Origin: Psammoneis japonica | Lineage: Eukaryota | Reading direction: 5' to 3' | Length of the DNA: 64,000 nucleotides | Assembly (NCBI GenBank): GCA_008632985.1 | Contig: QPGO01000125.1 | Location: forward strand, 1-64,000 | Shown: positions 3,850 to 30,881 of the stretch, in pieces | Numbering within the stretch: the stretch's first letter is position 1 | Layout of the letters: each line of letters starts with the position of its first letter | Translations under genes and position numbers: made by a program | The notes under the pieces: generated by a model | Databases searched by the model: none | What the model was told of the DNA's origin: nothing | The model's input: only the letters and a program-made list of their open reading frames with translations

Positions 3850-4100
3850 TTTGCACTTTTCAGCATCTGGAGCTGCCTCAGAGGCTGCCTCTGTTCATCT
3901 GCATCACTTTCGCGGCAACTGACGTTGGCCCCCCCCTCTCTGGAGTGCATTTGTTGCACAAGCGGGAGTGTGGCTCACTGTTTGGTGCTTTTCAGCATCT
4001 GGAGCTGCCTTGGAGGCTGCCTCTGTTCACCCACATCACTTTTGCAGTGACTGACGTTGGCCCCCTCTCTGGACGAGTGCATTTGTCGCACAAACAGGAG
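3850..4100 (+). repeat. ~127-bp direct duplication inside the Sola-like element
   Basis: cttttcagcatctggagctgcct..gaggctgcctctgttca...gacgttggcccc occurs twice. The copies differ by CA<->TG swaps. Confidence 0.85.
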
Positions 4101-4268
4101 TGCAAAAGCAGTGCATTTGCCATGGACACGTTGGCCAAAGCAGCCTCCCAGCAGCGTCCCGTTGGCGGCAGTCCCCTCAAGCAAACAATGACTCTTCCAG
4201 CACGTTGAAGGTTTCCTTTTGTTTCCAGCGTTGCGTCGAGGCACTCGCGGAACACCACCCACAGCAGG

Positions 4269-6491: not shown

Positions 6492-7700
6492 TTGAAAGAA
6501 ACAACTGGAGTGCACAAGGATGAGGATCTCATTGGCCTTTGCAGCTCTGTCCCAAAACCAAGGCCAAAAGGAGACACTTCATGGTGTTGGTTGACCAAAG
6601 CGCAGCTGCACCAACAAGAAAGGGATCGACTCGAGCGTGAGTGCGAAGACGCTCAAGTGATGTTGCAGGTTAAAAAACTCATTTGGATTGATCCAAGCAA
6701 ATGGAACAGCAGGCGTCAGCGTCCTGGCGATTCCAAAGGAGCCGTTCCTCACTTGTTTGGTTGCTTTGAAGGGAAAAACAAGGGCATCATGTTGTGGGAA
6801 CCATGGTTTGACTTGCGATGCAATGAAATGAATGGCCATCCCATGAACACGTGTGCGGGCCTCATTTTACGTGCCAAACACAAACCAAATGTTCCCCAGC
6901 AACTCAATCGAAAATGCAGGGACGAGATTAAGAACAAGGTGGAATCGATTTGCAACCCACCACAGATTGCCAAACTGAAGAGATTGACTGAAGTGGAGAT
7001 TCAAAAACTTCCACCTGTTGGGCGGGGAGCTGATTTCATTGGTTGCAGCTTGGAGGGGAACCGTCCCATGTGTGCAACCCTGGATTGGGCTGAGTGCAAT
7101 TTCAAGTTTCGGTTTCCAGATGTGTGGAAAGATTTGAAAGAGTTGAAGCCATTGGATGGTTGTTGCTCCTTGCCGGAAGGAAGCGCGTTGATGCCATCGA
7201 ACAGCAACATGCCGACAAGCGGTCCACCCATGAAATTCCTGCAAGGACAAAATGACACTTGCGTTTTTTCCTCCCTGGCCAGTGTTCTTGATTGTGCTGG
7301 CGATGTGGAAATGAGAGACTGCATTGCTCCTCACATTCAAACATCTGCCAACCATGCTGACACTGACAACAAGCACATGTTGTTTGCAAAGAACATGTTG
7401 AACGGTTGTTTGAAGGGAAAATTCCCGCCTGAGAACTCAAACATGAAGTTTTGCAGCAGCATGGATCAAACGATTCCCCTTGCAGCAGGTGGTGAATTTG
7501 ACGTGACGACCTGCAATGATGACTTCATGACTTTGTGCCGTCTTGTGAACAACCACTGCATTGCCTTGCACCGTGGATGGATCTTTGATTCCAACCAACC
7601 TTTTGCATTGCCAGCAAAGGACATTGAGTGTTTCAATTGGTGTCTCAGGAACGAGGAACATGAGGTGAAATGCCTGGTCTGCAACAAGTGTTCATGGTGG
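6492..7700 (+). pseudogene. Cargo ORF with papain-like Cys/His/Asp peptidase motifs, preceded by a Glu/Lys-rich linker (6050-6480)
   Basis: QNDTCVFSSLASVL ... NHCIA..GWIFDSN gives Cys-His-Asp order and spacing. Confidence 0.45.
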
Positions 7701-10700: not shown

Positions 10701-11120
10701 GCACACGCATGAACGCACAGATTTGTTGTTCTTGAGCGGCGGCGCAAAACAACACTCCTTCTCTCACTTTGACCACTGCACAACAAAGTGCCTGTTGGGG
10801 ATCCTTGTGGGTTGCTTCGAATGCATGAGGGTCAAAAGTGGGGCAACCTTGGGAGGCAGTGAGGTTGACAGCAGTTCGGTTGGCCGAAGCGACAGAGGGA
10901 GTGACGGCGGCATTGTCAGAGTTTGGGTTGGAGGGAGTGGTGGCCGCTCCTGCAGCATGCATTTGGGAGGGGGCTGGCTGTCTTGGCAAGGACAACCCTG
11001 GACAATGAGTGGGGTGTTCCTTGGAGGTGTTCAGGTTGAAAGCAGCCAGGTCGGTGGGAGCAACAGAGGGAGTGACGGCGGCATTGTCAGAGTCAGGGTT
11101 GGAGGGAGTGGCGGCCGCAT
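7645..11120 (-). pseudogene. Sola2-like transposase, fragmented, Tyr->Cys/His mutated
   Basis: Motifs D(C)SE...QVQGDH(C)G, HLSDSSKQD, W.....GCAKQ(H)RC and APGHGKGEVDGIG in ORF 8463-9722, with adjoining in-line ORF pieces. Confidence 0.7.
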
Positions 11121-13199
11121 TTCGAAAATCGAAAGGTGAGTGTGCACCCAAAAACACATGCAAAGTGCACACTTGCCCTTCGGTTTGGCAAAAAACGGAT
11201 TTCGAAAAAGTCATTTGCGCCAAACCCAAAAAGGCCAACGGTGGGAATCGAACCCACGCGGAGCACCTGGAGCTGGAACAGGCCTGGCATCAATGACAGC
11301 ACACACCACCAGGTTCAGCCAAGCAATGGAGTTGTCAATGGCACATTGCACAGAAGAATGTGCTGGGTGCCATGGCACAGGTGTTTGACATCACAGCAAA
11401 TCAAGCAAGTGAAAGCATGCTGCTCAGTTTGGCTGAGAGAGCCACACACAGAGCAGAGCTTGGTGCTGCACTTGGGGCTGCAGAAGGACTTTGTTCAGAT
11501 GATGAACATCAGGTTGATGGCACATCACTCACAATGGTGCTTGGTGTGGAGGAGGGTGCAAGAGACAGTGTGTGGCTTGCTTCCAAAGATGGCTTCATTG
11601 ACGGCACTTTGCTGCGGGCACCACAATTGACAACTCTGATGGGTTTGTTGATGGCAGGGTGGATGGCGACAATGACGGCATGCAACTGATGTCAGTGGAT
11701 GGAGTTGTCTTTGGTGCATTGCTTGGAAATGCACTGGGCAGCAAGTGATGGCGCGTGCTGCTGATGCATCACTTTTGCTGAGGGAGCCATGTGCACACAG
11801 AGCAGAGAGCCTGGCATTGCACTTGCAACATGGAATGAGCACAAAAGGCCAATTTTGTGCACAATGCTGTTGTGCAAACATGCAACACAAACAACTGCTT
11901 GTTTTTGATTGCAATGAAGGATTGAATTTGATCTCATTGTCCCTCAAAGCCTTGATGTCTGCCCTTCCATTTTGGCCTTGTGGCGGCTTTTGGTTGTTTT
12001 GGAATTTTCAAATTTTCGTGCATGAGGCCTGCTGTCAAACATTTTTTGGTTGTCCCATTCTCCATTGCAGACTGCTGCAACAGGCAGGCAGGAGAGTGAG
12101 GAATCTGAAAAAAAAACAGGATGTTCCAGCTCCAGGGTGGTGGAACACCTGGGAGCCCACAAACAAGGGGGCTCAAGACTTGTGTGATTTTAAGGTGCTG
12201 CGTGCGGCTCTCTGTCGGCACCACAACATGCATCAAGAACCTTTGCCTGGCTGGCACACAAGCTGTGTCTGCACACAAACCATCAGTGGGGTGGGTGCAA
12301 AAAGAAAGCCCGGAAGTCTCATGTCATCTTTGATGCCCACAGAACATGGCAAGCACACAGCATCTGCTGGACACAGCCACTGCCACCACAAAAAATGGGT
12401 GGACAGCAGACCAAGCCAAGTGCACTGGCGGGGCTTCTCATTGAACTCTGAGCTGGTGCAACCCCCCCCTTGGCTTTTTTCAAGAAAAGTTTGGTGCATC
12501 AGGAAGCACCTGAGTGTGGCAAAAACCCCGCTCCTCCTGTCTCATTGGCAGGAACCAAAAGGACATCATGTTGTGCTCACTCAACCTTGTCGTCCAGCAA
12601 ACACATGACGTTCTCTGTGAAAGTCACAATCTTGGCCCTCACATGCACAAAAAAAACAGCACTGTGCATGAAAACAGACCAAATTAACTCACAAAAGCCA
12701 TCTCAGTTGTTGTCAAGTTCCCCAAGCAGAGAGCAACAGTGTGCCAAGTTGCTTTGTGCAGCAGTTTTTCAAGTGCACAAGCTTCCAGCATGAGGGCATG
12801 ACAAACAAGTCATGCCAGACCACAAGGACAAGTTGCCAAGTGAGCTCAAAATGTCACAAAGTGAGCCAGGCAGTGCCCAAAGCCAGCCCCTGCAGAAGTT
12901 GCTCCAAGTGTTTTTGTTGAGCTCTCCAGCAAGTCAAACAGTTGCACACAGTTTTGGCGCAAGGTTTGAACCCCCCAGCATCTCCCCAAACACAGAAAGA
13001 CACAATGAGAGATGGAAGATTGCAAGGATGAGCAACCAAACAAATCAAATGAGGTGCACAAAAAATGATTTCCACAGCTGTTGTGTGCAAAAGTTGCTTT
13101 CCAGGTGTTTTTGTTCAGCTCCAAGCAGAGCAGCCTGTCATGCACAGCTGCAGCGAAGCATTTCCTGCACACATCTCCCAATGAGACCAGCAGCACCAG

Positions 13200-14810
13200 T
13201 CACTGCCCCCCCCCCCCCCCCAATCTGCAACTCAGTCCATGTGTGGCAGACTTGCTTTGCCTGCCACTGAGCACACTCTTGACAGAAACAGAAGACAAAA
13301 AGCAGACCCAACCACTTTGCAAAAAGTTGAGGCATGGAGCCAAAAGGCAGAGAGAGCAGGAGTCACTCTGGCGCTGGTGCTGAGAAAAGTGACTCTCCTC
13401 AACTGTGTGCCAGCATGGCAAGAGACCTTGCACCTGCACCACAGTCAGAGAGTTGTTGTGCAGCACTGGCAGTGCTCCATGGGGGTCACCCATGTTGGAC
13501 AGCAAGAGCTGAAATGTGAAAATGTCTTTCAGGCCAGTGTGAAGCTGGAGCTGTGCCACTTTGTCAGCTGCAGTGCACCCCCATTTTTGGGCATGTTTGC
13601 ATGGTCTGGGTGATCTTTTGTTGTCAAAGTGATGGCCTTCTCAACAATGTCTGCCGCAAAAGTGTCTGTCACAACTTGGCTCTCTTTGTTGCTGTGTGTG
13701 CTTTGAGCTCCACTTGCACACTGGTGGCAGGAGCAAGAGAGATCACCAACCTGTCTGGCTCAAATTGACAACACACGGATCAGGCAATCCAAAAGTGACC
13801 CCTTTTTGCAGAAGCAAACCCCCTCCCCCAAGTGCTTTGCAAAATGAGCTCCCCAGCTGTCAGTTTTTTCCTGCAGATGTTGGCACACCAACAACACCAG
13901 CACAGTTGTGCAACCAACATGAGACATTGCAGCGTGTGCACCCCACCATGGTTGGCCAGTTTGTGCACTGACAAAAGAAGTGTCACAAGGTGACGTGCAC
14001 AAGCAGTGACAGACAGCGGCGCACCACTGGCCACTGTCAATTGTGCAAATTTTCCAGCTCCAGCTAGAAGGGTCTGCACACTTGGCCCAGCAAAGAAGTG
14101 TGTGAGCACATGAAATTTCTTGTTCCCTCCAGTTCTTAAAACTGGTGTGTGCAGCATGCACACACAAGATGCAGCACAGGAGGCAACTGACTTGTTTCGT
14201 CTCTCATGTGAAGCCCCAAAATGCCTTGCTTTTGCTGCTCCTTGCAAATCAAAGGGCTCTCACAAACACTGCAGCCCAGAGGAGGGCAGCGGAAGTGAGA
14301 CACAAGTGCTTTGAAATCCATGCTGAGCAAACAGTGCCAAAAAACACAAGACATGTCTGCTGTTGCTGCACCAAACGCCCAAGAAGGCAGCACCACATTT
14401 CTCTCTCTCCTGCTCTCTCTCTCTCTCTCCCCAACAAAGCCCCGTTGTTGCAACAAGAAATGTCTGGGCTTTGCTCTGCAGATTTTTTGATTGCTGCTTT
14501 CCACTCGCCAGAGTTTTCGCGCATCTTTTGCAAATTTGAGTTGTGTTGCCATTTGGTGCAACCCAAATGTCAAGTTTTCACCAAGTGGCAAGTTCACTGC
14601 ATCAAAAGCCCAACCCACACCTCCACAAAATCCAGCACAAATTTTTCTTTTGTGCCACACAGCTTGCACACAGGGCATCTCTTGACATCTCAAGGCAAGG
14701 CTTCATGATGTGCAAGAATCCTTGGGGAAATTGTCTCCATGTTTGGCACCACCAAAAGAGCTGCAGTTGAATCTGACAATCAAGCTGCTGAGGCCAATTT
14801 GCTGCCACCA
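13200..14810 (-). pseudogene. Decayed gene of unknown function, paralog of 23954-24800
   Basis: 14590-14800 aligns with 24590-24790 (AGFCGGVGWAFD vs AGFYGGVHWAFD; GLSSLIVRFNCSSF vs SLSDLNIRFDCISF). Confidence 0.5.
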
Positions 14811-16206
14811 TGGACAAAAATGAAGATCAAACCTTGTCTTGTCATTCTTGCTTTTTTATGCTGATGTCGTTTGTGGGCTGGGTCTGTGGAGGTGAGGCAA
14901 GAGAAGGGAGAGAAAACTTGACCCCAGGCATTTGTTTGAGTTTTCTCACTTGCGCAGCGCTTTTTTTTCAATCAAGCTGCAAATTCTTGAGCAAGTTTGG
15001 ACTCAAGCCATTGTTGGCTGCTTGTGCATGTGTTGTCAAAGGGACAGGTGTGATGCAGTCAAAGGTTTGGCTTGTTGAGAGCATCAACGCAGCTGCTGTT
15101 GTCAGCTCTCAGAGTGTCAGCAGAGGGGGGGGGGGGGGCGGCCAAGGTGTGGTCAAACTGGAGAGGTGCAGAGGCACCAGGCCATCAAAGTGTGAGCTGC
15201 AGTCTCCACAGGGGTGCTGCAGCAGAGCCAGTTTGGCAAGCCAACAAAGCAAATTTTGTGTGGGTGCCTGCCACAGGACTCTTGGAAATTGAGTTGCCAT
15301 TGAGAACACAGACAATCAAGTGGCCAGGCAAGTGGCCAACACTTCTTGAAAAGTTGGATCGTGCATCTCCACACATGCCAAAGCAGAAGCTGGTGTGACG
15401 TTGCAAAACAAGAGGTGGAAATGCAGGCTGCAGGCTGCACACACAGTCTCAGCACTTGGATGCATTAAACCAGAAGCCTTGAAGGTGAGAAGGGCAGGTC
15501 ATTGGGAAAAATGTTCATTGCATGTAGAAACAATGCCAGATCTTGTGCACAGAAATGCCGGTGGTTGCAGCAAACAGACAGCAATCAACTGACACCAAAT
15601 GACAACTCACACTCACACTTGCAACAAGGGCCACAACAGAGACAGCACTTTCACCCCAAAGAGTGAAGAAGTTGATTGAACAACGGAAAAAGGAAGCAGT
15701 GCCAAAGACCAACTTGTGTGGACAGAGGTGGACCAGAGATGTGACAAGCAAATCATGAGCAGGTTCATGTGGAAATGCTGCGAGATCTTGCACGCAGCTG
15801 CTGATGGGCACAGCAAATGGATGACAGTCAAAGGACATTGAAGGATGACTCATGTTTCGTGGGCATGTCCACAGTGTCAGCAAGTTTGCTTTGGGAAAGA
15901 CACGCTGTTTGCACCTTGAATTGCTCCAAATTTGCAAGGGGCAAGAAGGGGTGCCAGACAGGGCTGCAATGTTTGAGAAGGATGTTGGGGTGTGTGTGTG
16001 TGTGTGATGCACAAAATTTGCAAACTTTGCTGGGGTGAAGTGGCCAAGGGCAAACAGCCGCTGCTTTCTAAAAAGGCCATCAGCTGGCCTTCAATTCTTG
16101 ACTGTGCCTTCATTTGTGACCACTGCCAGGCTGTTGATCATGCAGGGGCAGCAAGCATCTGAAATGGGCTCTCTGTGTTCTTGCCTGGTGTCATGGCAGG
16201 ACAAAT

Positions 16207-16637
16207 TGCCCTGTGTATGTACTGGGCGCTGAAAAGAAGATGTGTTACGACTTAGTCGTTGTGAAAATTATGAGCTAGTTTAGAGTAGAGAAAGTGGGAT
16301 CGTGCGAATAGGGAATCTTGCCAAATCCCTATTCGTTCGCATTTGGATCGTATCAAATCGATCGTGCGTTCGCATTATGGATCGTGCGAATCAAGCCATC
16401 ACGCGCTATGCACGAGTGATGTCATCGTGTGGAATCACGCTACCATCGTGGGCCAGACGACGGGCTAGTGTGCTTCACACGGATGCTCTCTTAGCATCCT
16501 TCTGGAATTGCCTAAGACCTAGAGCCACGCCCTCCTGTGGTCGTGCTTCCCAGGTACGCGTTAACAATACTACGTTGCCACGTACAAGAGGCTTATGCAC
16601 GGTCTCGCCGTGTTGTCCAGTAGCGAGGCATACTGCA
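16207..16637 (-). repeat. 3' LTR (TpA largely intact)
   Basis: TG...CA termini. Collinear with 23523-23953. Contains 26 TpA by manual count. Confidence 0.95.
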
Positions 16638-16648
16638 CACTCCCCCAT
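16638..16648 (-). promoter_or_regulatory. Polypurine tract
   Basis: Minus strand ATGGGGGAGTG immediately precedes the 3' LTR. Confidence 0.8.
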
Positions 16649-16676
16649 GATCAGGGCCGTTAAGTGACAGGATGTC

Positions 16677-18073
16677 TTACTGGTGATAGGGTACAATCTG
16701 CCGTAGATTGTACGTATCTATCAGCGCTCCGTTCTGGATACGCAACGTGCCGTTGTCATAGGTATACACGGACAACTCTGGCGGGTCCTGCATAGCTGTC
16801 AGAACCGTATTTAGAGAATTGTTCCTGTTTGATAAGTACCAATTGCCCTACGGTATATTGATACTCCTTGCGTTTCTGATTTTCACGCTTGTTGTTTAAG
16901 TGGATAAGCTTCTGCTTTCTGGTTTCTATGTACTTCCACTTAGCACGATAGGCAATAGATAAAACCGCATCGCGTCCGAAGACCAATTGCATGGGACTTG
17001 CACGCGTGGTCGTATGTACCGTAGCTCTAATAGCGAAGGCTACTGCAGAGAGGATGCCACTCCATGGGTCATCTTCGTCCAGTTCCATATCCTGTACTGA
17101 AAAGGAACGTACCATGTTACCAAGTGTCTGGTGTACACGTTCCACTATGGCATTCGCCTGTGGATTTCGCTTACTTATGGGTTTCTTCAAAATCCCATAG
17201 TCATTTTTAATCATCTGGCTAAATTCTGCCATAAATTCTGTCCCACGGTCATAAACCACCTGGGTTGGCCACGGATATCTGCATAGCCACGTTTGTTCCA
17301 CGACGTTTGCTACGACGTCTGCGCGTTTCGTAGACACTTCTTCAATCTCGAACCACCCGGTTGCTGGGTCAATCATTGTGACTGCCCGTAATTGCAAAGT
17401 GTCCTTTCCGCGTCTTTGAATTTTATATGGCCCTATCATATCTATGCATAAAGTCTCCCATGGAATTATCTCGGCGACCTTTTCTGGTAGCTTCCCATAA
17501 CGCTGCGTTCGGCGTTTTGTCTTCTGGCATCGATCGCACTTAACGCACGTAGAATGCACCGTAGACCTCATACTAGGCCAATAGAAGTGCTGGGCAATAG
17601 ATGTTTCCGTACGTGTCTCACCTGGATGACACAGTGTCTCGTGGTACCATTCAGTTAGCGGAACCTGCAATGACTGTGGTACTGCGATTTTGTCCTTATG
17701 ACAGATTAACTGTCGTGATGACCCTCCCCCACGATACGCGCGAATGGAGTAGTCGGACGAGTCCTTAGCTCGTGAGAGTAGGCGCTTGTCCTTTTGTTGT
17801 GCTTTTTGAATGCGCTTGAAGCTAACAGGCAGAGATGCATCGTCTTGCGCGTCTGCATTAAAGGCTTCATGTAAAGGACGACTCGATGGAGTGTCTTTTA
17901 CATCCAGATTGGCCTTGGAAGGCAAGCTGGGTGCCAGCCGAAGGCGACTAAGAGCGTCAGCGACTGGGTCATGGGTGCCCTCAACATGGCGTAATTCGGG
18001 ACCGCATTCTTCGCATGTTGACCGCCAGCGCATAACGCGCTCGGCATTGAACACTTTGTACGTAAGATTTTTA
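16677..18073 (-). pseudogene. Gypsy pol: end of RNase H plus integrase (HHCC, DDE, GPY/F-like tail)
   Basis: WYHETLCHPG..HFYWP..CDRC, IDMIGPY, TMIDPATGWFE, YDRGTEF, NAIVERVH. A 4-bp insertion at ~16761 frameshifts the last ~27 codons. Confidence 0.92.
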
Positions 18074-20122
18074 GACCCTGTCCAAACTGGATCATGCGCA
18101 TGATCACACATGACGTCACAGAGCCTAAAATCAGCCTCTTCGAAAAAAACAGTGGTCATTGGCCCAGTGCATGACGCAATTTTAGGCCATGCGACATTTC
18201 CAGAGGAACAGTGTTCTTGCGATGACACTGTTCCTCGGGAAATGTCATGCCCCCGAATCATGCCCCATTGTGCCCCCGTCCAATGACCGACATGGTGTCG
18301 GTTTTAGATGGATCCAAAGCGCGCATGGCTGCAATCTACATGAGACAACTGCACAATGCCATGCATGAGTTGTTTGTTGTCTTTGGGGGGCATTGTGTGC
18401 CATTTTCTAGACTCTTCTGGCTCAGCAATTCTGCCAAGCATTTTCTCAATGAACTCACATCAGATGTTCTTGCAGCCAACTGCTTTGGTCACAAGTTGCA
18501 CATGCACATGATTTTTGTGACAAGAGGTGTTCTTAATGTGGCTTGTTGCTGCCTCATGGTTGCGTTCTTGTCGTCATGGTGAGGTCGTTCTCGCCGTCGC
18601 GTGTTGTCATTTGTTTTTGCTTGGGCTGTCTGGCATTGCTGCACGTGCTGCAGAAATGAATCACTCGACTGATGTCTCCGGGTGTGCGATGTGTTTTCAT
18701 CCCAGGTGAGAAACGCACACACGGAGGTGAGGCGTTTCATCTGTCCCTTTTCCATCGCCGTGCTTTTTGTGCGAGCAAATCTGACTGGACTTTCCCCCAA
18801 TTTTTCGTTTCTTCTTTCCACAGACATGTTCATTTTGAAAAGCCAGCCGTCATTCTCATTGGTTGAAGGGTGCGCACAAGAAAAGCGCTGTCTCGAAAGC
18901 GGCATTTTTTGGAGTGAAACTGACAGCTGTCTGCTCGTTGTTGTCATTCTGGTGCATTTGAGAGACTGTTCTGCTGTTTCTTTCACCGAATCTGACTGCT
19001 TTGAAAGAATGTGCGCATTGTTCATTGTACAAAGAGCTCACACCAAAAAAGAACGGCGTTCTAACTCTGTCACTTGCATGAGAAAAATCGGGGGAACTGA
19101 CTTCGCACGTGATTTTTTTGCGCGATCGGCCATTTCAAAGATCGACTGATTTGTCGACCTGTGTGGGATGCTTGAGTGAACAAAACAATGGGATTGAAAT
19201 GGTGGCGTCAAAGTTCAATGTGTGTCTGGTTGTCATGTGATTTGACATGCCCAAGCAGAGTTAAAGATGAAATGTTGACAAAATTTCACCACTCAAAATG
19301 ACCAGTTCCATCTTAGAATAAAATGAAATGGCTGCAACACTGAGATGTCGCCAATGGCATTGTTCCACTTTACAACAATGAAACTGTCACACTTGCATCT
19401 GAGATTTTTTGTCCTCACACACCCTCAAAACCGAACACATGACGATTCTCTTGTCGGCAGCGAAATCTGATGTTGTCGCGCGACCCAAAAGCGTCGTCCA
19501 TGGTGACTCAAAGTGCGGACGATGCATTGCAAGAGTCACAGCAACGTGTCATAGAAACGTTCTTCGTTGTCAGCATCCGGTGTCAAGCAGATGGAGCAGC
19601 GTGTTGATGAGAATCCCACTTCGCAAGCTGAGGAAGAGAGAAAGAGGCATCAAAAACATCATGAGTCAAAAGGCTGTCCATGAGGCACAACAAAAAACAA
19701 AGATCAAATTTTCAACCACATCATCGCATTGAGCGTTGTCTCATTGACCTGTCTCGGCATTCTCACCTTCTCAGTCACAACATCCGTTGGTGCAAGAATG
19801 GACGAGTTCATGGCGATGGCATGGTGCCATTTTCGGTTTGCGCGAATTGTGGTTTGTGGTTCGAGACATGGAAAAACATGTTTTTGCTGTCATGGAGCTC
19901 GTTTTTTACCAAGATTTTTGGCACCAAATGTACGTCTCATGTAGAAACACGTAGAAAACCTCGTGATGTGTCCAAAAGTTTCTCACCTGGGATGAAAACA
20001 CATCGTGCATCATGCGTGCAATTGAGTTTGGAAAGGACAATGCAAGTGTGACCCATGACATCAGCGAAAAAGCCTTCGTGACGCAGGTGTGATCATGGGT
20101 GTGATCCAGTTTGGACAGGGTC
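18074..20122. mobile_element. PIF/Harbinger-like non-autonomous element nested in Gypsy RNase H
   Basis: TIR GACCCTGTCCAAACTGGATCA (18074-18094; reverse complement 20102-20122). TSD is TTA on the left and TTG on the right. Removing it restores D-H-K-N-L-T-Y in frame. Confidence 0.85.
18688..20004. mobile_element. Sola-like non-autonomous element (1.3 kb) nested in the Harbinger-like element
   Basis: Perfect 27-bp TIR GATGTGTTTTCATCCCAGGTGAGAAAC, 4-bp TSD GTGC. Confidence 0.8.
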
Positions 20123-20125
20123 TTG

Positions 20126-22320
20126 TGATCAGCACGTGCAATTGCACGATGACCAAGGAGAATCGCTCGAAATTCTTTCAACGTCTCCACAATGGCGAGT
20201 GATTCTCTCTCCGTTGTTGCACAATTTAGTTGCGCACTGTTGAGCTTTCTGCTGTAAAAGGCGATGGGTTTGTTGTCTTGGGATGTGACTGCTCCCAATT
20301 GACATTTAGAGGCATCGGCATGCATCTCAAAGGGTTTGTTAAAATCAGGATGTGACAATGAAACATCATCTGACATCACCCGTTTGACGGTTTCGAACGC
20401 CTCGTCTTCAACGGACGTCCACTCCCACTTGACAGTCTCGCTTGCGAGTCGTGTTGGCGGAGCCAAGACTTCAGAACGTCTGATCCACGTGTCACGGCAG
20501 TGGTTCACCACACCAACAAATGAGCGCAGGTCGCGTTTGTTGGCTGGGGTCGTGATTCGCTTGATGGCGTCGACTTCATCAGGTGTTGGTCGCACCGCGT
20601 CTCTGTTGACCAGGTGACCCAAGCACTCTAATTGGGTTTGACAGAAGTGAGATTTAGTTGCATTGACTTTTAGTCCTGCTTTCTGGACCCTCAACAAAAC
20701 TTCTTCAAGTTTGTTGAGGTGATCTTCACAGGTGCCTTTCGTCACGACGAGAAGGTCATCCAAGCACGTTCGAACGAACGACAGATCTTCAAATGAGCCT
20801 GACATGCGTTCGACGCGTTCCAGCCCCAGGTGGGACTCCGTGTGACATTTGGCCCGTAGAATTCTACGTGCGAGCTCCGCAGCACAAGAATTTAATCAAT
20901 GGATGTGTTCATCTTCAACATCAAATAAACGGCCAAGTTTGTGGCACAATCATGCCTCTCACCACTCGACGTTTTTGCAAATGCACCTGCCCCACGCAAT
21001 TCTTAAGACATTGTAGAATCGCGCTGCAACAAAAAATGTCAAAAGTTTTTGGACGGATCGCTCAACAAGTGCACCGTAAAATGACACAAAATGTCAAAAA
21101 ATCACGTAGAATTCTACGTGCGCGACATACGACGAGATTCAAAAAACTGTCGATGTCACAGTTCAGCAGTGCGAGGTCCCACCTGGACCTGGAACGCGTC
21201 GTTCTTGGAAAATGTCTGGCGAATTGCATGACCCCATGGGCAATGCCTGCATCTCACACTTGCCCCACGGGAAGATGAGCGTGCAGAGCTTCTTGCCATC
21301 AGTGTCCAATCGGATGTGATGACAGCCCATGTTCAAACACAGCGATGCAGCCCACACAAAGCCTTCGAGCTCAAGCAGCATGTCTTGGACATGAGGAATC
21401 GGACAAGGCAATCGCTTGATCCGTTTGTTCAGCTCTCTGAAATCATTGACAAAGTGCACCGTCAAATCTTTCTTCGGTGTGACAAATGATGGAGCTGCCC
21501 ATTGGGATCGGTTGACGCGTTTGAGAACACCGATGCGCACTGGGCGTTCTACTTCTTTACGCAGCGTGGCTTCGTGCGCACGAGGCACTTTACACGGATG
21601 AGCGTGGTGTGGTTCTACACCCTCCTTGAGCTGGACATGGCAGGGTTCTCCCTTCCATTCTCCTAGTGTCCCATCAAACAAGGACTCATGGCGTTTCAAC
21701 AGTGCCAAAAGGTCGTTTTGTTGAACTGTAGAAAATCCCACTGCCCCTCGCGTTATGTCCTTGAGGCAGGCCGGCGCATGCTCAGTGTCTAAAATGCGTG
21801 AAATCCGGTCGGTTTCCGAAGACAAGGCTTCTGGATCTTGAAGATAGAAGGAGGTTTCTGCCGCAGCATCTGCGTGCCTCATTGGCACTTCTCCATTGAC
21901 CAGTGGCCACTCTGTCATCTGCTTAGAGAAGACAACATCAATGCCTTGTGTCTCCAGAATGTCACGTCCAATGATCGTGTCGTGCTTGCCCAACTTTCCG
22001 TTGTGCATGTGGACGGCATGTTTGAGTTCTACAGTTTCGGACAATTCTGGCAACCGAAATTTAACGGTGCAGTCGTCAGACGCACTGAACGAGCCTGCTG
22101 CCGTAGTCCAGTTTGTCTCAGCCGTTGAATGGCTTCGCAGACGCTTGCAGCATCGACTGTCGAGTAGAGCACTGCTGGCGCCACTGTCCAGCAGTGCCTT
22201 GATGGTTTGAGTCTTGCCCTTGCCATGTTTGGCATTCACAGCTGCAAACAAGATTGGAGCAAGATGAGCCTTTTTAGTTCGTTTGCGGGGTTGGCCTGCA
22301 ACACGTGTGCGACGGCAACT
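20126..22320 (-). pseudogene. Gypsy pol: aspartic protease, reverse transcriptase and RNase H, hypermutated
   Basis: LLDSGAS; WAAPSF..PKKD; DFRELNKRI; LPMG..NSPDIFQ; CLDD (=YLDD); DAS..QLGA..SQ..KPIAFYSRKL; ERE.LAIVETLKEFR. Confidence 0.92.
20812..21200. mobile_element. Sola-like MITE (389 bp) inserted in RT
   Basis: 25-bp TIR GACGCGTTCCAG(CC/GT)CCAGGTGGGAC, TSD GTTC. Removing it restores I-F-Q-E-R-M-S. Two internal CGTAGAATTCTACG palindromes. Confidence 0.85.
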
Positions 22321-22383
22321 CAGTTGTTCATTTGTGCATTCATCTGATGTGTTGAAACCACCTGCATCGTGTCGGCCCCCTTC

Positions 22384-23428
22384 TCAGGTGTCCGAATCTT
22401 TGGAATCACTTGAGTTGAGGTCGCGGAAGTGATTGAGCTCCTCCTCGCGTGCCTTGCGCTTTTTCTGAGCATTGGCAAAGAACTCCTCGACCTTCGATCC
22501 GATGAGAGCATCAATGTCTTCCTCATTCCAAGGTTTTGCACCAGGCTTGCTGCCTCCATCATTGGAATGTCCAGTCTTGACACGTTTCACGTGGTGCTTG
22601 AGCTGACGGCAATCCTCCGCATGATGTCCACAGTCAGTCCCGTGTGGCATGCACGACTTCTGGGTGTTCCGTTGGGTCGTGATCAACGACTCAGGATTGT
22701 CCGTTCTATGTCCCCGCTCATGCAGAATCTCAGCATGTTGGTCCAGGTTACCTTCGGCAAGCTCGACCTGCTTGATGCGCTCGCAGAACTGTGCAAATTC
22801 GGCGATGGCATGCGCCAACGGGTCAAAATTCTGTAGCGTCATGAACTTCTGCCATGCATTCGGCACACCGCACTCGAACATGTCGTGCAGTTTGTCATTG
22901 GGCAATGGTGCCGGTGCTTCTCCATCCTCCATCACGGGTGGAAACTGAGAGACACAGCCGTTAATTTCAACAGCCCTCACGACGCAGTCACGAGCAGAAA
23001 CCTCTGCGGGCTTGCGCATGAAGCGCCTCAGACAGATGCTTCTGCAACAGCACCGCCCCATGTGGGAAGATGCTTTCCTTTAGCTTCGCGACGCATGCTG
23101 TGCACGCAGCGTTGGCTTGGGATGCCTGCTTGTCAGCGGCATCATTGAATGACGTCAGAGCATCGCCCTGCAGCAGGTCACGCACAAGGGCAAATTTCGC
23201 TGGCACGGTCGTCATGTTTTGTCCTTCGTGCACACGATCCACGTTGCGCAGAAAGATTGGGAGTGTCTTGCATGCAGCCGCAGAAAGGCACGGGATGCCC
23301 ATCTCATGTGTTGGACTGTCCGGATCAGCGGGGTTGTCATGCAGTTTGAACGTCTGGCACTCGCCCTGCTGCAGCTCTTTCTTCTCCGGCCGTGCGAACG
23401 GAATCGGCGGCTCAACCCACTTCTTCAT
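22384..23428 (-). pseudogene. Gypsy gag (frameshifted, hypermutated)
   Basis: MKKWVEPPIPFARP...LLQGDALTSF...RRFMRKP...P.AWQ...F.ER, and a decayed C..HG...H....C knuckle. Confidence 0.75.
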
Positions 23429-23522
23429 GGTCGTTTTGAGATTTGTCGGTCCTGCCAACATTTCGTAGTTTCGTTTCTGCAGATTTTGTTGCCTCGCACA
23501 ACATGCGGGAGCAATGTCACTG

Positions 23523-23953
23523 TGCCCTGTGCACATGCTAGGCACTGAAAAGAAGATGTGTCACAACTTTGTCGTTGTGAAAATTGTGAGCCAGTTTAGA
23601 GCAGAGAAAGTGGGATCGTGCGAATGGGGAATCTTGCCAAATCCCCATTCGTTCGCATTTGGATCGCATCAAATCGATCGTGCGTTCGCATTGTGGATCG
23701 TGTGAATCAAGCCATCACGCGCTGTGCACGAGTGATGTCATCGTGTGGAATCACGCTGCCATCGTGGGCCAGACAACGGGCTGGTGTGCTTCACACGGAT
23801 GCTCTCTTGGCATCCTTCTGGAATTGCCTGAGACCCAGAGCCACGCCCTCCTGTGGCAGTGCTTCCCAGTCACACGTCAACAATGCTGCGTTGCCACGTG
23901 CAAGAGGCTCATGCACGGTCTCGCCGTGTTGTCCAGCAGCGAGGCACACTGCG
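23523..23953 (-). repeat. 5' LTR (TpA-erased)
   Basis: Collinear with 16207-16637. Only 2 TpA remain. Confidence 0.95.
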
Positions 23954-24800
23954 AAATTTTTTGTGCCGGCTGCCCAGCTGCTTGCAATTGCACGATGGCA
24001 CACTCAGTGCAACACATCTGGCTTTTTCACAAAAAAGGTGTGAGCTCCCAAAATGTCAGACCTCAGACCCACCTAAAACCTGCTTGTTGGGCCACAACTC
24101 TGGCAGCTTGCTGCAAGGGCTCACAAGAGTCTTTGCCAGAGTGCTGCACAAGCTGTGAACAATGGGTGCAGCAGCAGTGCATGGCAACAAGTTTTCAAAA
24201 CAAACTTGATGGCACAAACTCTGCCACTTTGTTGTGCACAGATGCTGGTCACTTTGAACACATGCTGAAAGCAAATGCTCTTGTGCACAGCTGACAGACC
24301 AACAGCTGCTGGGCGGAAACCCCAAAGGGAAAAGAGTCGTTTTTTGGAGGCAATGAAAGCTTGTCAAAAATCATGACAAAATCATCCCAACTGCAACAAC
24401 AAATGTTTTTGCGCATTGTTGCAGATGGCAATTCATTGCCATGTTTCAGCTGGTGCTGGTGTGACAAGCATCACCCTGAGCCTTGCCCCGCCCACAGCCA
24501 AATCTGCTTGTTGTGCTCCACTCTCCGCAGCTTTTTTTTTTGTGCATTTTGCAAACCCAAGTTTTTGCCATTTGGCCCACCCAACATTGCAAGTTCATCA
24601 CATCAAAAGCCCAATGCACGCCTCCATAAAATCCAGCACACTTCTTTCCTTGTGGCGCATTGTGGTGACCCATTCATGAGTCGAGGCCCCTCATGTGGAC
24701 AGTAAATCCTTGTTGGGAAATTGCCTCCATTTCTCGCCACTAAAGGAGATACAATCAAATCTGATATTCAGATCTGAGAGGCTCATTTGCTATCACTATC
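23954..24800 (-). pseudogene. 5' part of a decayed host gene, probably the insertion target of the Gypsy element
   Basis: Paralogous to ~14100-14810, has stops and frameshifts, and straddles the TpA-poor/TpA-normal border. Confidence 0.45.
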
Positions 24801-25385
24801 GCCAAAAATTAAATAAAACGGTGATGTTACTCTGCATAGGGTATTATGCAATGAGCATTGAAAATGATGTTAATATTTATAAATTTATATTTTTAAAAAT
24901 ATCTATGAGCACCTAATGCTGGAGTACGAATTAATGTTGAATATGGTCATAAATATGAAATTCAAAAAACAAACAAACAAGATTTCAAAAAATTGATCAA
25001 GCTTCGGACGCGTAGAAATCAATTTTTAATTTTTTGGCGGGAATGTCGAACGAGTTGTCACAAATGCCAACACATTTTGGAAGAACAAGACCCACACTGC
25101 AGTTCCCGGCTGTGCTGTTATGTGGAAAGACATGTGAGACCGATCCATTTAACAGAGGCAAGACTCAGCGAATGAGCTCCCGGAAAAGCTGAACAGTTTG
25201 TTATGTAGCGATGCCGATGCTTTATGAAACTACAAGACCCAGCGATTCTAGACCCGGCAATTCAATTCGTGGGTGTATCTTTCAGCATGATGTGATGTAT
25301 CTATGTAGCACAGAGTGTGAAATGTTGACACTTTTTTCGACATGCGAATCATAGTCGAGGTGACACTCAGCAAAAGTGCAGAAAG

Positions 25386-28300
25386 ATGAAGCTCTTTCAA
25401 CATGGCATTATTTACTTGGCGCTCGCTGGTAAGCAGCATGGTGTAAACTCCAACGAAGTGCAGTGGATAAGACGCGAGTTGAATGCTCGGTCGATAGCAT
25501 CAGCTTCTCAAGCAATCCCAGAAGAAGTTAGCAAAGCAGCTGTTGGCTATGAAGGATTCTTGCGAAGACCTGTTGTAGGTCGAGAATTGGCGACTCCTGT
25601 TCCTCCTTCGCCACGACCTCCTTCGCCGAGGCCGCCATCGCCGCAACCACCATCTCCCCGCCCCCCTACGCCACCTCCTTCTCAGGAGGCGATAGCAGTT
25701 TGTGAAGTAACGGTACGTACAACATGAAAAACGTGAGCTTCGCTGGTACGGGAAAAGCCCTAATAATGTGGACAATCTTTTCGTTTAGGTGGACATTGAT
25801 TGCACTAGCGCAGAAGACAAGTCTGTACCATGTGATGATATCCCGCAGCCTCAGGGAGTGTGTTCGGATGGGGAACCCTTCAGGTCGCTTATGTTCGTGT
25901 ACGGACCGCGAAACTGCGACCAAAGCGTAAATGCCCAAGGAAGCGACTTTGTTTGTGAAGATACACCCGGTCCACCCCTCAATAGGGTGAAACTTCTTTG
26001 CGAGTCTAGTGATGGCTTGACGGATTACTTTGACAAGACAGTAGCGCCAGGTGACCTTGTTACTATCTCACCACCACCAGGCAGTGTTGTGTCGGACAGA
26101 CTTAACTGCACCATTGCCAACATGGATCGAAACCCTTTTCAAAAGCTATCGTTGGAAACATCTGGGGATGCTCCCCTTCACCTGAACAATATCTTCGGTA
26201 GCTTGGTCCTCAAGGCATGTCAGGCGGAGGATCAAGAAACGGATAACTCCTGTCTTGCTGAGATCGAGAATGACATAACGATCACAAACATTGGTGAAGA
26301 CAATTTCACCATCACCAAGGTGGATCAGTCGATCAATGGGGGGAGTCCACAAGACATTACAGATCTTGTCCCTGATAAGGAGCTTGCTCCGAACGAAACC
26401 ACGTCTTTCAGCGAAACAGGAACGATTGACTTGTGCGTCGATATGGTATATACGACAGAAGTGACTGTCGAGGCGGTTCCTGAGCCGATCGGAGATTTGT
26501 GTACAGGAAGAGATGAGGTGAGTACGGAGAGTATCGTACGAAAACAAATATGTAAAATGGATTTACAATTTCTAAATTCTTGTCTTATGTTACTCTTTCG
26601 TGAAAAAGATCGAATACGATACGAACAGTTTGCCGACACCATCTCCGACTGTACTACCAACGCCGCCTCCAACGTTGGCGACGCCTTCTCCGACACCTCC
26701 TCCAACTCCACCCCCGACTCCTCCGCCTACATTGCAGCCAACTCTGCCTCCTTCCCTGCCCCCGACGCCACTGCCAACACCACCCCCTTCTATTCAAACG
26801 ATAGCAGTTTGTGAAGTAACGGTACGTACAATATGAGATATTATTGATCTCGCTAGTACAGAAAAAACATGTTTTCTTAATTTTTGCCGTTGAAATCAAT
26901 ACTGTGCGTTTGCTTTCGTTTCTGTAGGTGGGCATAAATTGCACAAGCGCCGAAGACAAGTCAGTTCCGTGTGGTGATATCCCGCAGCCTCAGGGAGTAT
27001 GCTCAGATGGTGAACCCTTCACGTCGCTTTCGTTCTTGTACGTACCACGAAATTGCGATCAAAGCGCACATGCCCAAGGAAGCGGCTTTGTTTGCGAAGA
27101 TACGCCCGGTCCACCCGCCAGCAGCGTGCTCCTTAATTGTGCGTCTAGTGATGGTATGACGGAGTACTTTAACAAGACAGTGGCGCCAGGTGACCTTGTT
27201 ACGATCTCTCAATCATCAGGCAGTGTTGTGTCAGACAGACTTAACTGCACTGTTTCCAACGTGAATCGCGAGCCATTTCAAAAACTATCGTTGGAGACGT
27301 CCGGAGATGCCCCCCTTCATCTGAACGACATCTTTGGTAGCTTGGTCCTCAAGGCATGTCAGGCGGAGGATCAAGACACGGATAACTCCTGTCTTGCTGA
27401 GATCGAGAATGGCATAACTATCACAAACATTGGTGAAGACAATTTCACCATCACCAAGGTGGATCAGTCGATCAACGGGGGAAGTCCACAAGACATTACT
27501 GACCTTGTCCCTGATAAGGAGCTTGCCCCGAACGAAACCACGTCTTTCAGCGAAACCGGAACGATTGACGTGTGCGTCGACATGGTATATACGACAGAAG
27601 TGACTGTCGAGGCGGTTCCTGAGCCGGTTGGAGATTTGTGTACAGGAAGAGATCAGGTGAGCGTATGGTGTCATCATGATTTTCAAAGGGAAGCCAAAAA
27701 GAAATCGAACATTCTAAATTCCTGCCTGCTGCTACTCTATTGATGAAGTTCGAGTTTGATACGAACAATTTGCCGACCCCACCTCCGTCTCCAAGTCCTA
27801 CACCGCTTCCTACGCCACCGCCCACCTCTCTCCCTACGCCGCCTCCGACTCCAGGACCCACCCCTCCACCCTCCCCTGCCCCAACTCTTCCACCGACGAT
27901 GCAACCAACCCTGCCTCCTTCGCTGCCTCCAAGTCAGGGTCCTACAACACCACCTACTCCAGGTCCTACGATGCCTCCTTCGCCACCTCCATCTCCCGGA
28001 CCTACGAAGACTCCCACACCACCGCCGTCGAAGCAGCCGACCCCTCCACCCACATTTCCGCCCACACCGTTCCCGACACAAACCACGGCTACTGCGTCGC
28101 CAACCCCACCTCCGTCTCCAAGTCCTACACCGCTTCCCACACCGCCGCCCACCCCTCCTCCTACGCCGCCTCCGACTCCAGGACCCACTCAGGATCCTAC
28201 ACCACCGCCTACTCCAGGTCCTACGATGCCTCCCTCGCTACCTCCATCGCCCGGACCTACGAAGACTCCCACAAGAGCGCCCTCGAAGCAGCCAACTCCC

Positions 28301-29921
28301 CCACCCACATTTCCACCCACACCACCACCTACGCCTCCGCCCACACCGTTCCCGACACAAACGACGGCTACTGCGTCGCCAACCCCACCTCCGTCTCCAA
28401 ATCCTACACCGCTTCCTACACCTCCGCCCTCCCTCTCCCTACGCCGCCTCCGACTCCAGGACCCACTACACCACCGCCTACTCCAGGTCCCACGATGCCT
28501 CCTTCGCCACCTCCATCACCCGGACCTACGAAGACTCCCACACCACCGCCCACGAAGCAGCCAACTCCCCCGCCAACATTTCCACCCACACCACCACCGA
28601 CGCCTCCGCCCACACCGTTCCCGACACAAACGACGGCTACTGCATCGCCAACCCCACCTCCGTCTCCAAATCCTACGCCGCTTCCTACGCCGCCGCCCAC
28701 CCCTCTCCCTACGCCGCCTCCGACTCCAGGACCTACTCCATCGCCGACAAAAATTCCAACCCAGAAGCCCACGCCGGTGCCTACGGCATCTCCGACTTCA
28801 AGTCCCACGCCTCCACCGACCCCTGCTCCAACTTCAAGCCCAACTGCTTCACCGACAAAAGTTCCAACTCCATCACCGACAAAAGTACCAACCCTGAAGC
28901 CCACGCCGGTCCCGACGCAAACAACGGCTACCGCGTTGCCTACTTTACCTCCGTCTCCAAACCCAACGCCAGTTCCTACTCCGTCTCCTACACCCGAGCC
29001 AACGCCGGAGCCAACACCTGTTCCTACTCCGGCTCCTACACCCGAGCCAACGCCGGAGCCAACACCTGTTCCTACCCCGGCTCCTACACCCGAGCCAACG
29101 CCGGAGCCAACGCCTGCTCCCTCGACCGTAAGCCGACACCAAGACCCTCACAGAGCGCTGAATCACCACCGCCTACTCCGAGACCAAAGCCTAGTCCCCC
29201 TTGTCCACCAAAACCGCCTAAACCTAGTCCCAAGCCGCCACCGCCCAAGCCCCCTCCTCCGCCTCCACCTTCTCCGTCTCCCATGCCGCCACCGCCCAAG
29301 CCCCCTCCTCCGCCTCCACCTTCTCCGTCTCCCAAGCCGCCACCACCCAAGCCTCCTCCTCCTCCTCCACCTTCTCCGTCTCCCAAGCCGCCGCCGCCCA
29401 AGCCTCCTCCTCCTCCTCCCCCACCTTCTCCGTCTCCCAAGCCGCCGCCCCCTCCAGCCAAAGGCAAAGGAGCATCACCGAGTCCAAGGCCACCGCCACC
29501 GAAGCCTCCACCGCCGAGGCCTCCGCCACCCCGTCCAGCCAAAGGAGCATCACCGAGTCCAAGGCCGCCACCACCGAAGCCCCCACCGCCGAGGCCGCCG
29601 CCACCCCGTCCAGCCAAAGGAGCATCGCCGAGTCCTGCACCGCCTCGTCCATCTCCTCGTTCCGCCAAAGGCAAAGGAAGGGGTTCATCTTCCAGTCGTT
29701 CATCTCCTTCCTCAAGAGGAAGAAAGAGCGGCCGCAGCAGGTCAAGCAGTCGAGGCAAAAAGAGACGCAGTCGGTCAAGCCGTAATGGCAAGAAAGGCAG
29801 CAGTAGAAGTCGTTCACGCGGCAAGAGGTCAAGCCGCAGCAGGGGCAAGAAAGGCAGTAGTAAAAGTCGGTCACGTGGCAAGAGGTCACGCAGCGGTGGC
29901 AAGAAAGGATCTAGTCGTTGA
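25386..29921 (+). CDS. Secreted Pro/Thr-rich protein with two ~240-aa Cys-containing domains, PTP/PKP repeats and an Arg/Lys/Ser-rich C-terminal tail
   Basis: Signal-like [20 protein letters not shown]. Exons 25386-25428, 25498-25712, 25789-26517, 26609-26821, 26928-27656, 27749-29921 with GT-AG introns. Two apparent 1-bp deletions (~28430, ~29127). Confidence 0.8.
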
Positions 29922-30881
29922 GGCAAGAGACGTGGAGACTCGCGAATCATCGTGCAACGTGTTATTCGGAAACTCCAGCGAAGTATCACTGCACATTGGT
30001 ATACCTAAGCCAGCCAGCCAGCCAGCCAGCCAGATCGCCATACCAGCACACTCAAAAGCCACAATACATTCTACCTCTTTTGCAAGATTTGTATACAATC
30101 AAGAGCTCTCTCTGTTGGCAATGTAGTGACAGTGTTTGTCCTGCGCATACATTGCGAGAAAGCCTTGATCCAAGAGCTGCACATCAAGACGTCACGTCGT
30201 CGTGAGAGCGACGATAAAAGACACTGCCCAATGCATGGTTGCATGATTCATGATTGATTTACTTTCTTTGATAATGCATAGTCTGAAGAATCAATAGTCT
30301 TTTCATCGCAGCAATAGCATCAGTAATTTCGCCAAAGTGCGCATTGACGAAAACGCCGTTAGTACTAGATGAGCGTAACAAAAGGGGAGCCTTGCTGGCA
30401 CTTTGGGAACAATGGATATTTTCAAAAAGGCTCTGTGTACAAGCATTGTCTCTCTTGCTGCCCCATTCTTGTTCATGGTTCTGCAGAAATCGCCAAAGTT
30501 GAAAAGTGAGCTCCGCGTCGTCGGAGTTGAAAGTGGCGGCAAATCTCATGACCGTTGAAACGCAGAGCATTCGCACACTATCAAAAGTGTGAGACGAAAA
30601 TTTCAAAACATATATGAAATTTAATAAAATATATATATTATATAACCCTCATTCATTATAACATTCCATTTCGCAAAGCTTGGTACGTTTTGTACGAAGC
30701 TTTTACATTTGTACCAAATCTTTAAGTATGTAGAAATATACTGCAAGCTACGTGGTTCGTGGCCTTCCCGAGATCTTCAGCAAAGCATCGCACCGCAAAC
30801 ACGTTGGGCATAAAAATGACACACGAGGCAATCGTGCGTTCGAAACGACGCCGTTGCCGCTTCAAAGGCAGAGCAAAAGCC

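Follow-up and report, generated by a model that had tools for sequence, protein, structure and literature searches.

Loss of TpA from most of a Ty3/Gypsy retrotransposon, probably through hypermutation after its integration

We analysed a window of 64,000 nucleotides (contig QPGO01000125.1 of the Psammoneis japonica assembly GCA_008632985.1, positions 1 to 64,000) in which a stretch coding for reverse transcriptase (RT) and RNase H has been altered at its TA dinucleotides. This hypermutated region is the protease-RT-RNase H part of a single minus-strand Ty3/Gypsy long terminal repeat (LTR) retrotransposon at 16207-23953. The two LTRs are 431 bp each and align without gaps at 91.4% identity. 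The same AAAT bases stand outside both of them as a target-site duplication (TSD), and the element is therefore a single insertion. Its Pfam matches follow the expected order of aspartyl protease, RVT_1, RT_RNaseH_2/RT_RNaseH, Integrase_H2C2 and rve. Two LTRs, a TSD and the order protease-RT-RNase H-integrase together place the element in Ty3/Gypsy. The full-length Pol homologue P0001 aligned with 22377-21160 at 51%, with 20811-20113 at 61% and with 18087-16765 at 63% identity. A longer homologue, P0039, reached position 23031 in the gag region in a tblastn search, and the open reading frames (ORFs) of that region had no match in Pfam. Gag is split over two overlapping frames, 22988-23560 and 22384-23079, which an indel or a natural site of frameshifting would explain.

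Two further mobile elements are nested in pol, a miniature inverted-repeat transposable element (MITE) and a longer element with terminal inverted repeats (TIRs; Table 1). A first-pass annotation of this DNA had described 20126..22251 as RT and RNase H. The range is not one continuous coding stretch, since the MITE at 20807-21202 splits the RT, and its start at 20126 is the edge of the nested TIR element. Of the sequencing runs searched, one, X1, contained the DNA of the window, as contigs with half of the sampled words, and no RNA run was listed. Some X1 contigs stem from other family copies, and these join 20806 to 21200, 20807 to 21203 and 18073 to 20126. These contigs bridge both insert sites, which shows that other family copies carry neither the MITE nor the TIR element. 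The summed word depth of the MITE in run X1, which is not a copy number, was about 139,000 compared with about 45 for the unique flanks, and the MITE probably represents a very abundant family. By the same measure the Gypsy element stood at 200-600 times the flanks, with the MITE still higher. Among the pieces of run X1 on 13000-32000, 1819 of 8862 were at least 99% alike. The left 600 bp of the TIR element had far lower X1 depth than its remainder, and its ORFs had no Pfam match. Its 3-bp TSD, TTA or TTG, resembles what we take to be TWA sites of the PIF/Harbinger type.

Relatives of the Gypsy element were all distant. The best full-length Pol in the protein collection was 51-53% identical, the representative library offered at most 59%, and a metagenome scan returned integrase relatives of only 23-42% identity. 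Consequently, no unmutated sister copy was at hand for an alignment at the nucleotide level. A tblastn search with seven Pol homologues (rows given for two) detected no further Gypsy remnant in the window.

Table 1. Positions and TA content of the Gypsy element, its nested inserts and the TA-depleted blocks in the 64,000-nucleotide window
Feature	Position	Strand	Remarks
TSD AAAT, left copy	16203..16206		same four bases beside right LTR
3' LTR, essentially unmutated	16207..16637	-	26 TA, rho(TA) 0.99
Integrase (H2C2 zinc finger and rve core), TA-normal, open	16756..17969	-	Pfam; 63% identity to P0001; rho(TA) 0.97
Transition zone, RNase H end, partly mutated (includes ...LRHVEG)	17970..18073	-	TA-explained mismatches
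Nested TIR element, 2052 bp	18074..20125		~40-bp inverted ends, 3-bp TSD, rho(TA) 0.12
C-terminal RT (CLDD) and RNase H, hypermutated	20126..20806	-	Pfam RVT_1, RT_RNaseH_2, RT_RNaseH
Nested MITE in RT, after FQER	20807..21202		396 bp, ~25-bp TIRs, 5-bp TSD, rho(TA) 0.37
Protease and N-terminal RT, open but altered by missense (GCHHIRL, GKCE)	21203..22383	-	Pfam aspartyl protease; 51% identity to P0001
Gag region, TA-depleted	22384..23522	-	6 TA, rho(TA) 0.10
5' LTR, hypermutated	23523..23953	-	2 TA, rho(TA) 0.09
TSD AAAT, right copy	23954..23957		junction inspection
TA-free right flank	23954..24700		2 TA, rho(TA) 0.04, CG rho 0.23
TA-free block, older	1-16200		33 TA, rho(TA) 0.03, CG rho 0.36, long ORFs without family
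TA-depleted block	18201-20850		rho(TA) 0.12
TA-depleted block	22101-24700		rho(TA) 0.09
Second TA-free block	46201-51800		19 TA, rho(TA) 0.05, CG rho 0.15
Third TA-free block	60301-62150		9 TA, rho(TA) 0.08

The LTR pair keeps a record of the mutational process. A new insertion has two identical LTRs, because one template serves for both. In the window copy, 37 of 431 positions are now different. Of the 26 TA dinucleotides in the 3' LTR, 24 read TG (12) or CA (12) in the 5' LTR, one is kept and one reads TT. Thus A->G/T->C changes at TA make up 24 of the 37 differences, and the rest consists of five CpG transitions and eight others. The CpG transitions are CG->TG/CA changes in the 5' LTR (5 of 33 CG). 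The others comprise one reverse TA change, one site with TG in one LTR and CA in the other (two positions, both states derivable from TA), one reverse CG change at the last LTR base and four further changes. Corrected for saturation, the number of changes per site was 2.56 at TA, 0.16 at CG and 0.013 elsewhere, so that the TA process exceeds the background by a factor of about 200 and CpG decay by a factor of about 16. Since the LTRs were identical at integration and are now unlike, the changes arose in chromosomal DNA after integration. Other family copies can be compared at ten listed positions of the element where every aligned X1 contig differs from the window. At four of them the other copies read TA where the window copy reads TG, and at five they read CG where the window copy has TG or CA.

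The changes carry no sign of a preferred strand. The sense strand of pol has 20 TG and 15 CA (p = 0.5), and no strand choice was found at 41 asymmetric TA sites.

The protein-coding part allows an independent view of the direction of change. We aligned the translated pol with 108 of 120 listed Pol homologues, namely those of 1000-1200 aa, omitting the 12 outside that length, and left residues read through into the nested elements out of the counts. Columns with Tyr in at least 60% of homologues were taken as Tyr-consensus columns, and columns at 90% or more as conserved. The 619 residues of protease, RT and RNase H include 18 Tyr-consensus columns, which hold Cys in eight cases, His in eight, Trp in one and Tyr in one. 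Every Cys is encoded by a TGY codon and every His by a CAY codon. The first-pass annotation had seen Tyr replaced by Cys or His throughout RT and RNase H, and the alignment bears this out at 16 of the 18 columns: nine of ten in the protease/N-terminal RT piece (the tenth being Trp) and seven of eight in the C-terminal RT/RNase H piece (the eighth being Tyr). It had also described the adjacent integrase as keeping its Tyr residues and an open frame. We found Tyr in 10 of 13 Tyr-consensus columns there, with one His, one Phe and one Ala, in an open frame of 515 codons with rho(TA) 0.97. The loss of Tyr in the mutated zone compared with the integrase is significant (Fisher p = 6e-5).

These residues are not a peculiarity of the family. 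Relatives that naturally encode Cys or His at the same positions had been named as the observation that would speak against a mutational origin, yet no homologue among the 108 has more than two Cys or His across the 18 columns (none in 65, one in 35, two in 8). The Tyr of the catalytic YxDD motif is present in 107 of the 108; the sole homologue with Cys in this column, P0095, may itself come from a damaged copy. The composition of the mutated zone is skewed accordingly, with 2 Tyr, 21 Cys and 27 His in 619 residues, where the homologues have 2.6-4.4% Tyr and 0.3-2.0% Cys. In the mutated zone 43 of 239 residues at conserved columns depart from the consensus, a larger share than the 10 of 132 counted for the integrase part (p = 0.005). 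When the replacements are tabulated, as had been proposed, a single TA->TG/CA step accounts for 30 of the 43 mismatches and a CG->TG/CA step for one. A/T->G/C changes outside a TA context explain no further mismatch among the 43. The protein columns and the LTR pair therefore agree that TA is the ancestral state, as the annotation had argued.

All seven motifs that had been quoted in support occur in the minus-strand translations. The Cys codon of CLDD is TGC at 20766. GCHHIRL has TGT at 21324 and CAT at 21321, and GKCE has TGT at 21258. LECLGH has TGC at 20625 and CAC at 20616, VNHCRD has CAC at 20502 and TGC at 20499, and NCATTERE has TGT at 20223. The seventh, EECGPELRHVEG, is real but lies outside the range given for it, at about 17970-18010, with its His codon CAT at 17988.

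Conversion of TA has a simple consequence for stop codons, as TAA can only turn into TGA or CAA and TAG into TGG or CAG, and new stops cannot arise. TGA makes up 1309 of 1454 stop codons in TA-depleted DNA over six frames, in line with the first-pass proposal that TAA and TAG are removed and that many long spurious ORFs result. Compared with normal DNA, depleted DNA has fewer stops (2.55 versus 3.69 per 100 codons) and more ORFs of at least 100 aa (39 versus 20 per 10 kb). ORFs of this length contain 6.3% Cys, 5.3% His and 0.1% Tyr in depleted DNA versus 2.8, 2.6 and 2.3% in normal DNA. A Pfam scan of 16 long ORFs left 13, mainly in TA-free DNA, without a family; the three that matched encode a lipase, a ferric reductase and an FMO of the host. 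In pol, apart from the two inserts, the frames stay open over 406 and 329 codons despite many missense changes. With the catalytic YxDD reading CLDD in frames that are still open, the gene appears to have been inactivated by missense changes, as suggested at first sight.

Whether a TA site was converted looks to depend on its flanking bases. We set 59 converted sites (24 from the LTRs and 35 inferred from protein columns) against the 30 TA still present in the element. ATAT, ATAC/GTAT and GTAC sites account for 24 converted and no remaining sites, and CTAG, CTAA/TTAG and TTAA for 9 converted and 15 remaining (p = 2.4e-6). The 96 residual TA of the depleted blocks tell the same story when set against 1277 TA in normal DNA: TTAA is enriched 5.2-fold and CTAA 3.3-fold, and ATAC, ATAT and TATA are absent (chi-square p = 1e-20). 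Some of the residual TA may be new mutations. In these small numbers RTAY sites look fully converted and YTAR sites spared, which is a new detail of the process. As the flanks have an effect and no strand is chosen, susceptibility looks like a property of the duplex site.

TA loss reaches well beyond the Gypsy element. The window contains 1514 TA in total, and five blocks nearly free of TA together span about 28.9 kb, or 45% of its length. TG and CA are in excess in all five (1.5-2.0). Taken overall, depleted DNA has rho(TA) 0.03-0.22 with TG/CA at 1.3-2.0, and host-gene DNA has rho(TA) 0.5-0.9. The depleted blocks hold the Gypsy element, the TIR element and ORFs without a family; the genes for leucine-rich repeat (LRR) proteins, ferric reductase, lipase and FMO are all situated in DNA of normal TA content. 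Depletion thus extends to DNA that is not a retroelement, including the nested TIR element (0.12) and the flanks (0.04). The partial depletion of the MITE (rho 0.37) suggests either that it arrived after most of the hypermutation or that it was targeted more weakly. The stretch 29201-29850 was rejected as a further depleted block, being GC-rich proline-repeat coding DNA without an excess of TG. The first TA-free block includes a scaffold gap of 306 N at 2576-2881.

Two controls show how unusual this composition is. None of 40 distant Gypsy-type metagenome loci had a rho(TA) below 0.58. In normal DNA of the window, a pair of 315-bp repeats at 42255-42575 and 62220-62530, with perfect TIRs of 36-40 bp and about 80% identity, differs at 59 positions, of which only three are of the TA type. 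This mix of substitutions is an ordinary one, and divergence outside the depleted DNA of this genome thus shows nothing unusual. CpG, too, is scarce in the older blocks (rho 0.15-0.36), and the CG rho of the Gypsy element is still 0.7-1.0. Considering that CpG has been lost from the old blocks and not yet from the Gypsy element, the TA process must be far faster than CpG decay. The CpG depletion of the older blocks also implies cytosine methylation and decay within the same domains as TA loss.

Within the element, the 3' LTR and integrase form a TA-normal island of 1.8 kb in 24 kb of TA-free DNA. The left border of the island is the end of the element. At its right edge, of seven mismatches in the 3' part that a TA step explains, six lie between 17970 and 18045, within about 100 bp of the insert junction 18073/18074, and beyond them toward the integrase there is one doubtful TA-explained mismatch. 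The stretch 17901-18073 has 6 TA and rho(TA) 0.69. The boundary between mutated and unmutated DNA coincides with no domain border and lies about 100 bp past the insertion of the nested transposon, whose 3-bp TSD is TTA next to the island and TTG next to the mutated DNA. Contigs of X1 match both outer junctions, 15125-16233 and 23923-24976, with 0 differences, and include the TA-bearing LTR bases 16207-16233 and the converted LTR bases 23923-23953. Since both junctions are confirmed, the asymmetry of the two element ends is real.

The direction of change, its specificity for TA, its strand symmetry, its timing after integration and its regional limits are features of the DNA itself. We are fairly confident that they reflect a TpA-specific A:T->G:C hypermutation, which acted after integration and killed this Gypsy copy. 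In this reading a TpA-specific transition process acted on the DNA of the integrated element. At a TA step, A->G gives TG and the same change on the opposite strand reads as CA, and a single event destroys the site. About 90% of TA steps were converted in the 5' LTR, gag, protease, RT, RNase H and the nested DNA transposon, with integrase and 3' LTR left almost untouched. TAY codons for Tyr became Cys (TGY) or His (CAY), and other TA codons and TA at codon borders produced Ile->Val/Thr/Met, Leu->Ser/Pro, Thr->Ala, Lys->Glu and similar replacements. The frames remain open and the enzyme is dead, because no stop can arise and TAA and TAG vanish. In about 45% of the window the process has reached saturation, and the DNA concerned is non-genic or repeat-like throughout.

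By analogy, this activity could be a host genome defence of the kind described in the alga Bigelowiella natans. A plausible chemistry would be DNA adenine deamination by a candidate enzyme of the TadA/ADAT2 type; the natural substrate of these enzymes, A34, is as far as known always preceded by U33. Targeting would follow chromatin state or small RNAs rather than copy number. One of two identical LTRs was spared and a TA-normal repeat exists, which shows that copy number alone is not decisive.

Several points weigh against this interpretation. Not all repeats are targeted, as the 315-bp TIR repeat is TA-normal. A simple regional model does not account for the sparing of the integrase and 3' LTR, which lie within 24 kb of otherwise TA-free DNA. 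The short contigs of X1 verify only the two flank junctions and not the high-copy interior, and X1 may be the source data of the window assembly. Finally, the lineage of the host is judged from the named matches of a single gene.

The edge within the element has two readings, domain-limited targeting or a later repair of the island by gene conversion. According to the latter, hypermutation had at first covered the element from end to end, and an intact copy then served as the template by which 16207 to about 17960 regained its TA. The island is one unbroken block of homology between the element end and the nested insertion. It also lacks the five CpG transitions of the 5' LTR and so looks younger in two respects, and the family has very many near-identical pieces in X1. 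On the other hand, TA is intact within 10-15 bp of the outer LTR end, where a conversion tract would have had no flanking homology. We regard such a replacement as a possibility to be taken seriously, though we would not bet on it.

The post-integration hypermutation that we favour could also proceed through thymine. The same TpA-targeted DNA process would in that case involve a modified base, 5-hydroxymethyluracil or of the base-J type, that mispairs with G and gives T->C. Preferential replacement of thymine at TpA is found in some protists. As TA is palindromic, T->C on one strand equals A->G on the other, so that the observed symmetry fits both routes, and dependence on a symmetric duplex context without strand choice would suit an enzyme that reads the duplex. 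Still, this route seems unlikely to us; the sole published analysis of the signature, that of B. natans, proposes adenine deamination, by homology only (Mettrop et al., bioRxiv 2026, 10.64898/2026.01.13.699255).

If an ADAR- or ADAT-like enzyme had edited the RNA or cDNA of the element and the hypermutated cDNA had then been integrated, this would explain A-to-G hypermutation with a 5' U preference, which is typical of ADAR on repeat RNA (also cited in 10.64898/2026.01.13.699255). More broadly, the signature shares with APOBEC3 and ADAR of animals the stamp of a deaminase with a fixed neighbouring base, directed against retroelements. Those enzymes, however, act on cDNA or RNA before integration, with single-strand bias, and leave the LTRs identical. 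Here the LTRs are unlike at 24 of 26 TA, sense and antisense changes are equally common, and the nested DNA transposon and non-element flanks are as depleted as the retrotransposon. With symmetric changes made after integration and DNA transposons and flanks also affected, the case falls outside the pre-integration APOBEC/ADAR class, and we consider editing of this kind highly improbable.

An artefact, whether an assembly that fused a mutated with an unmutated copy or an effect of sequencing chemistry, is about as hard to credit. The element is high-copy, the scaffold has a gap of 306 N, and the interior is not spanned by the short contigs. Against this, both junctions occur in X1 without a difference, the same 4-bp TSD is found at both ends, and the unique TA-free flanks recur without a single difference. 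Nor should an artefact track transposon borders or yield coherent Tyr->Cys/His replacements in an otherwise conserved protein. A reversal of direction, with TG/CA ancestral and repeat-induced point mutation (RIP) of the fungal type (CpA->TpA) acting on the integrase and 3' LTR, would involve the same dinucleotides and can practically be dismissed, as the TA-rich part is near the consensus (10 of 132 off), keeps its Tyr, runs for 515 codons without a stop and has no excess of TA (rho(TA) 0.97-0.99), and the non-consensus residues lie in the TA-poor part.

The closest known counterpart to the favoured TpA hypermutation is that of the rhizarian alga B. natans, where mutation-accumulation lines with an integrated nucleocytoplasmic large DNA virus (NCLDV) and a virophage have been analysed (Mettrop et al., bioRxiv 2026, 10.64898/2026.01.13.699255). 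According to the main text of that preprint, 230 of 231 mutations in the viral inserts were A->G/T->C, all 230 on TpA, at rates about 1000 times the background and in only some of the lines. RT and DDE domains were over-represented among TpA-depleted coding sequences, the authors described 124 TpA-poor clusters, and an ADAT2-like deaminase was proposed from homology (all 10.64898/2026.01.13.699255). The likeness to our window, as judged from that text, is in changes restricted to TpA and leading to TpG or CpA on either strand, and in their confinement to foreign or mobile regions beside a normal genome, which leaves clusters poor in TpA and rich in CpA and TpG. There are differences as well. 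Depletion is near saturation here (rho 0.03-0.12), compared with 0.45 in the NCLDV insert of B. natans. The target here is a high-copy LTR retrotransposon and transposon-rich blocks rather than mainly viruses. The intra-element edge and the flanking preference belong to our locus, where the process is known from sequence and not from rates. The words 'flanking', 'context', 'trinucleotide', 'LTR' and 'retrotransposon' are absent from the main text of the preprint (10.64898/2026.01.13.699255). A full-text literature search found no other report of TpA-specific hypermutation and none for diatoms. The process is thus a signature already known from B. natans and now met in what is probably another host lineage; the saturation, the intra-element edge and the flanking motif are new.

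RIP of ascomycete fungi resembles the present process in being regional, post-integration and specific for dinucleotides, in producing transitions that inactivate transposons and in reshaping dinucleotide content, and it involves the same dinucleotides (TA, TG and CA). Its direction is the opposite: RIP makes TpA from CpA/TpG and creates stops, whereas here TpA is destroyed and stops are removed. RIP also needs duplicated sequence and marks both copies, whereas here only one of two identical LTRs is mutated and a TA-normal repeat exists, and cytosine is not the target. With TA nearly absent and stops lost, the locus does not belong to the class of fungal RIP. CpG decay, the deamination of 5-methylcytosine in silenced repeats, likewise produces an excess of TG and CA and is present here as a second, slower process. 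Unlike the TA process it cannot remove TA, and in the same LTR it was about 16 times slower per site.

We tentatively suggest that a 'mirror image' of RIP exists beyond one chlorarachniophyte, as a TpA-directed DNA-editing defence in a stramenopile (diatom-like) alga that would read the duplex site, preferring RTAY, sparing YTAR and choosing no strand, and act on integrated transposons until every susceptible TA is lost. It would be directed at chromatin domains with edges sharp to about 100 bp, whereby one half of an element could be erased and the other left intact. If true, this would mean either an ancient system across stramenopiles, alveolates and Rhizaria (SAR) or convergent evolution, and would supply an extended target motif for the search for the enzyme. 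If the kinship with diatoms holds, TpA-directed genome defence would be a wider feature of protists and not a curiosity of a single species. The contrast between RTAY and YTAR is a testable handle on the enzyme, and the two LTRs of one insertion provide a clean internal gauge of specificity. There are practical consequences as well. Gene finders can be misled by Cys/His-rich, Tyr-free 'proteins' that end only in TGA. Homology searches and ages estimated from LTR divergence are biased, given that a divergence of 8.6% here masks about 1% of background change.

The TA-normal DNA of the window carries host genes for tandem LRR proteins, DUF7467/proline-rich proteins, a lipase, a ferric reductase and an FMO. 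The ferric reductase ORF is complete with 544 codons, and nothing above 46% identity to it was found in a collection of NCBI, JGI and MMETSP proteins. Its only close named matches come from diatoms (Bacillariaceae sp.), at 46, 34 and 34%, followed by oomycetes at 26%. One homologue led only to fungal ferric-reductase clusters in the Protein Atlas, which give no help on lineage. Judging from these matches, the host probably belongs to a lineage other than that of B. natans and near diatoms; the first-pass mention of stramenopiles is thereby faintly favoured, through one host gene.

Tandem paralogues at 25789-30126 consist of DUF7467 followed by long Pro/Thr/Ser-rich repeats of the PTPPPSP type (GC 63%) and are about 80% identical to one another. 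They look like secreted mucin- or extensin-like proteins. In the region 31198-39448, plant-type LRRs (LRRNT_2, LRR_8) occur in seven or more clustered ORFs, whose best relatives are metagenome proteins of 30-36% identity; the cluster looks like a tandem family of receptor-like genes.

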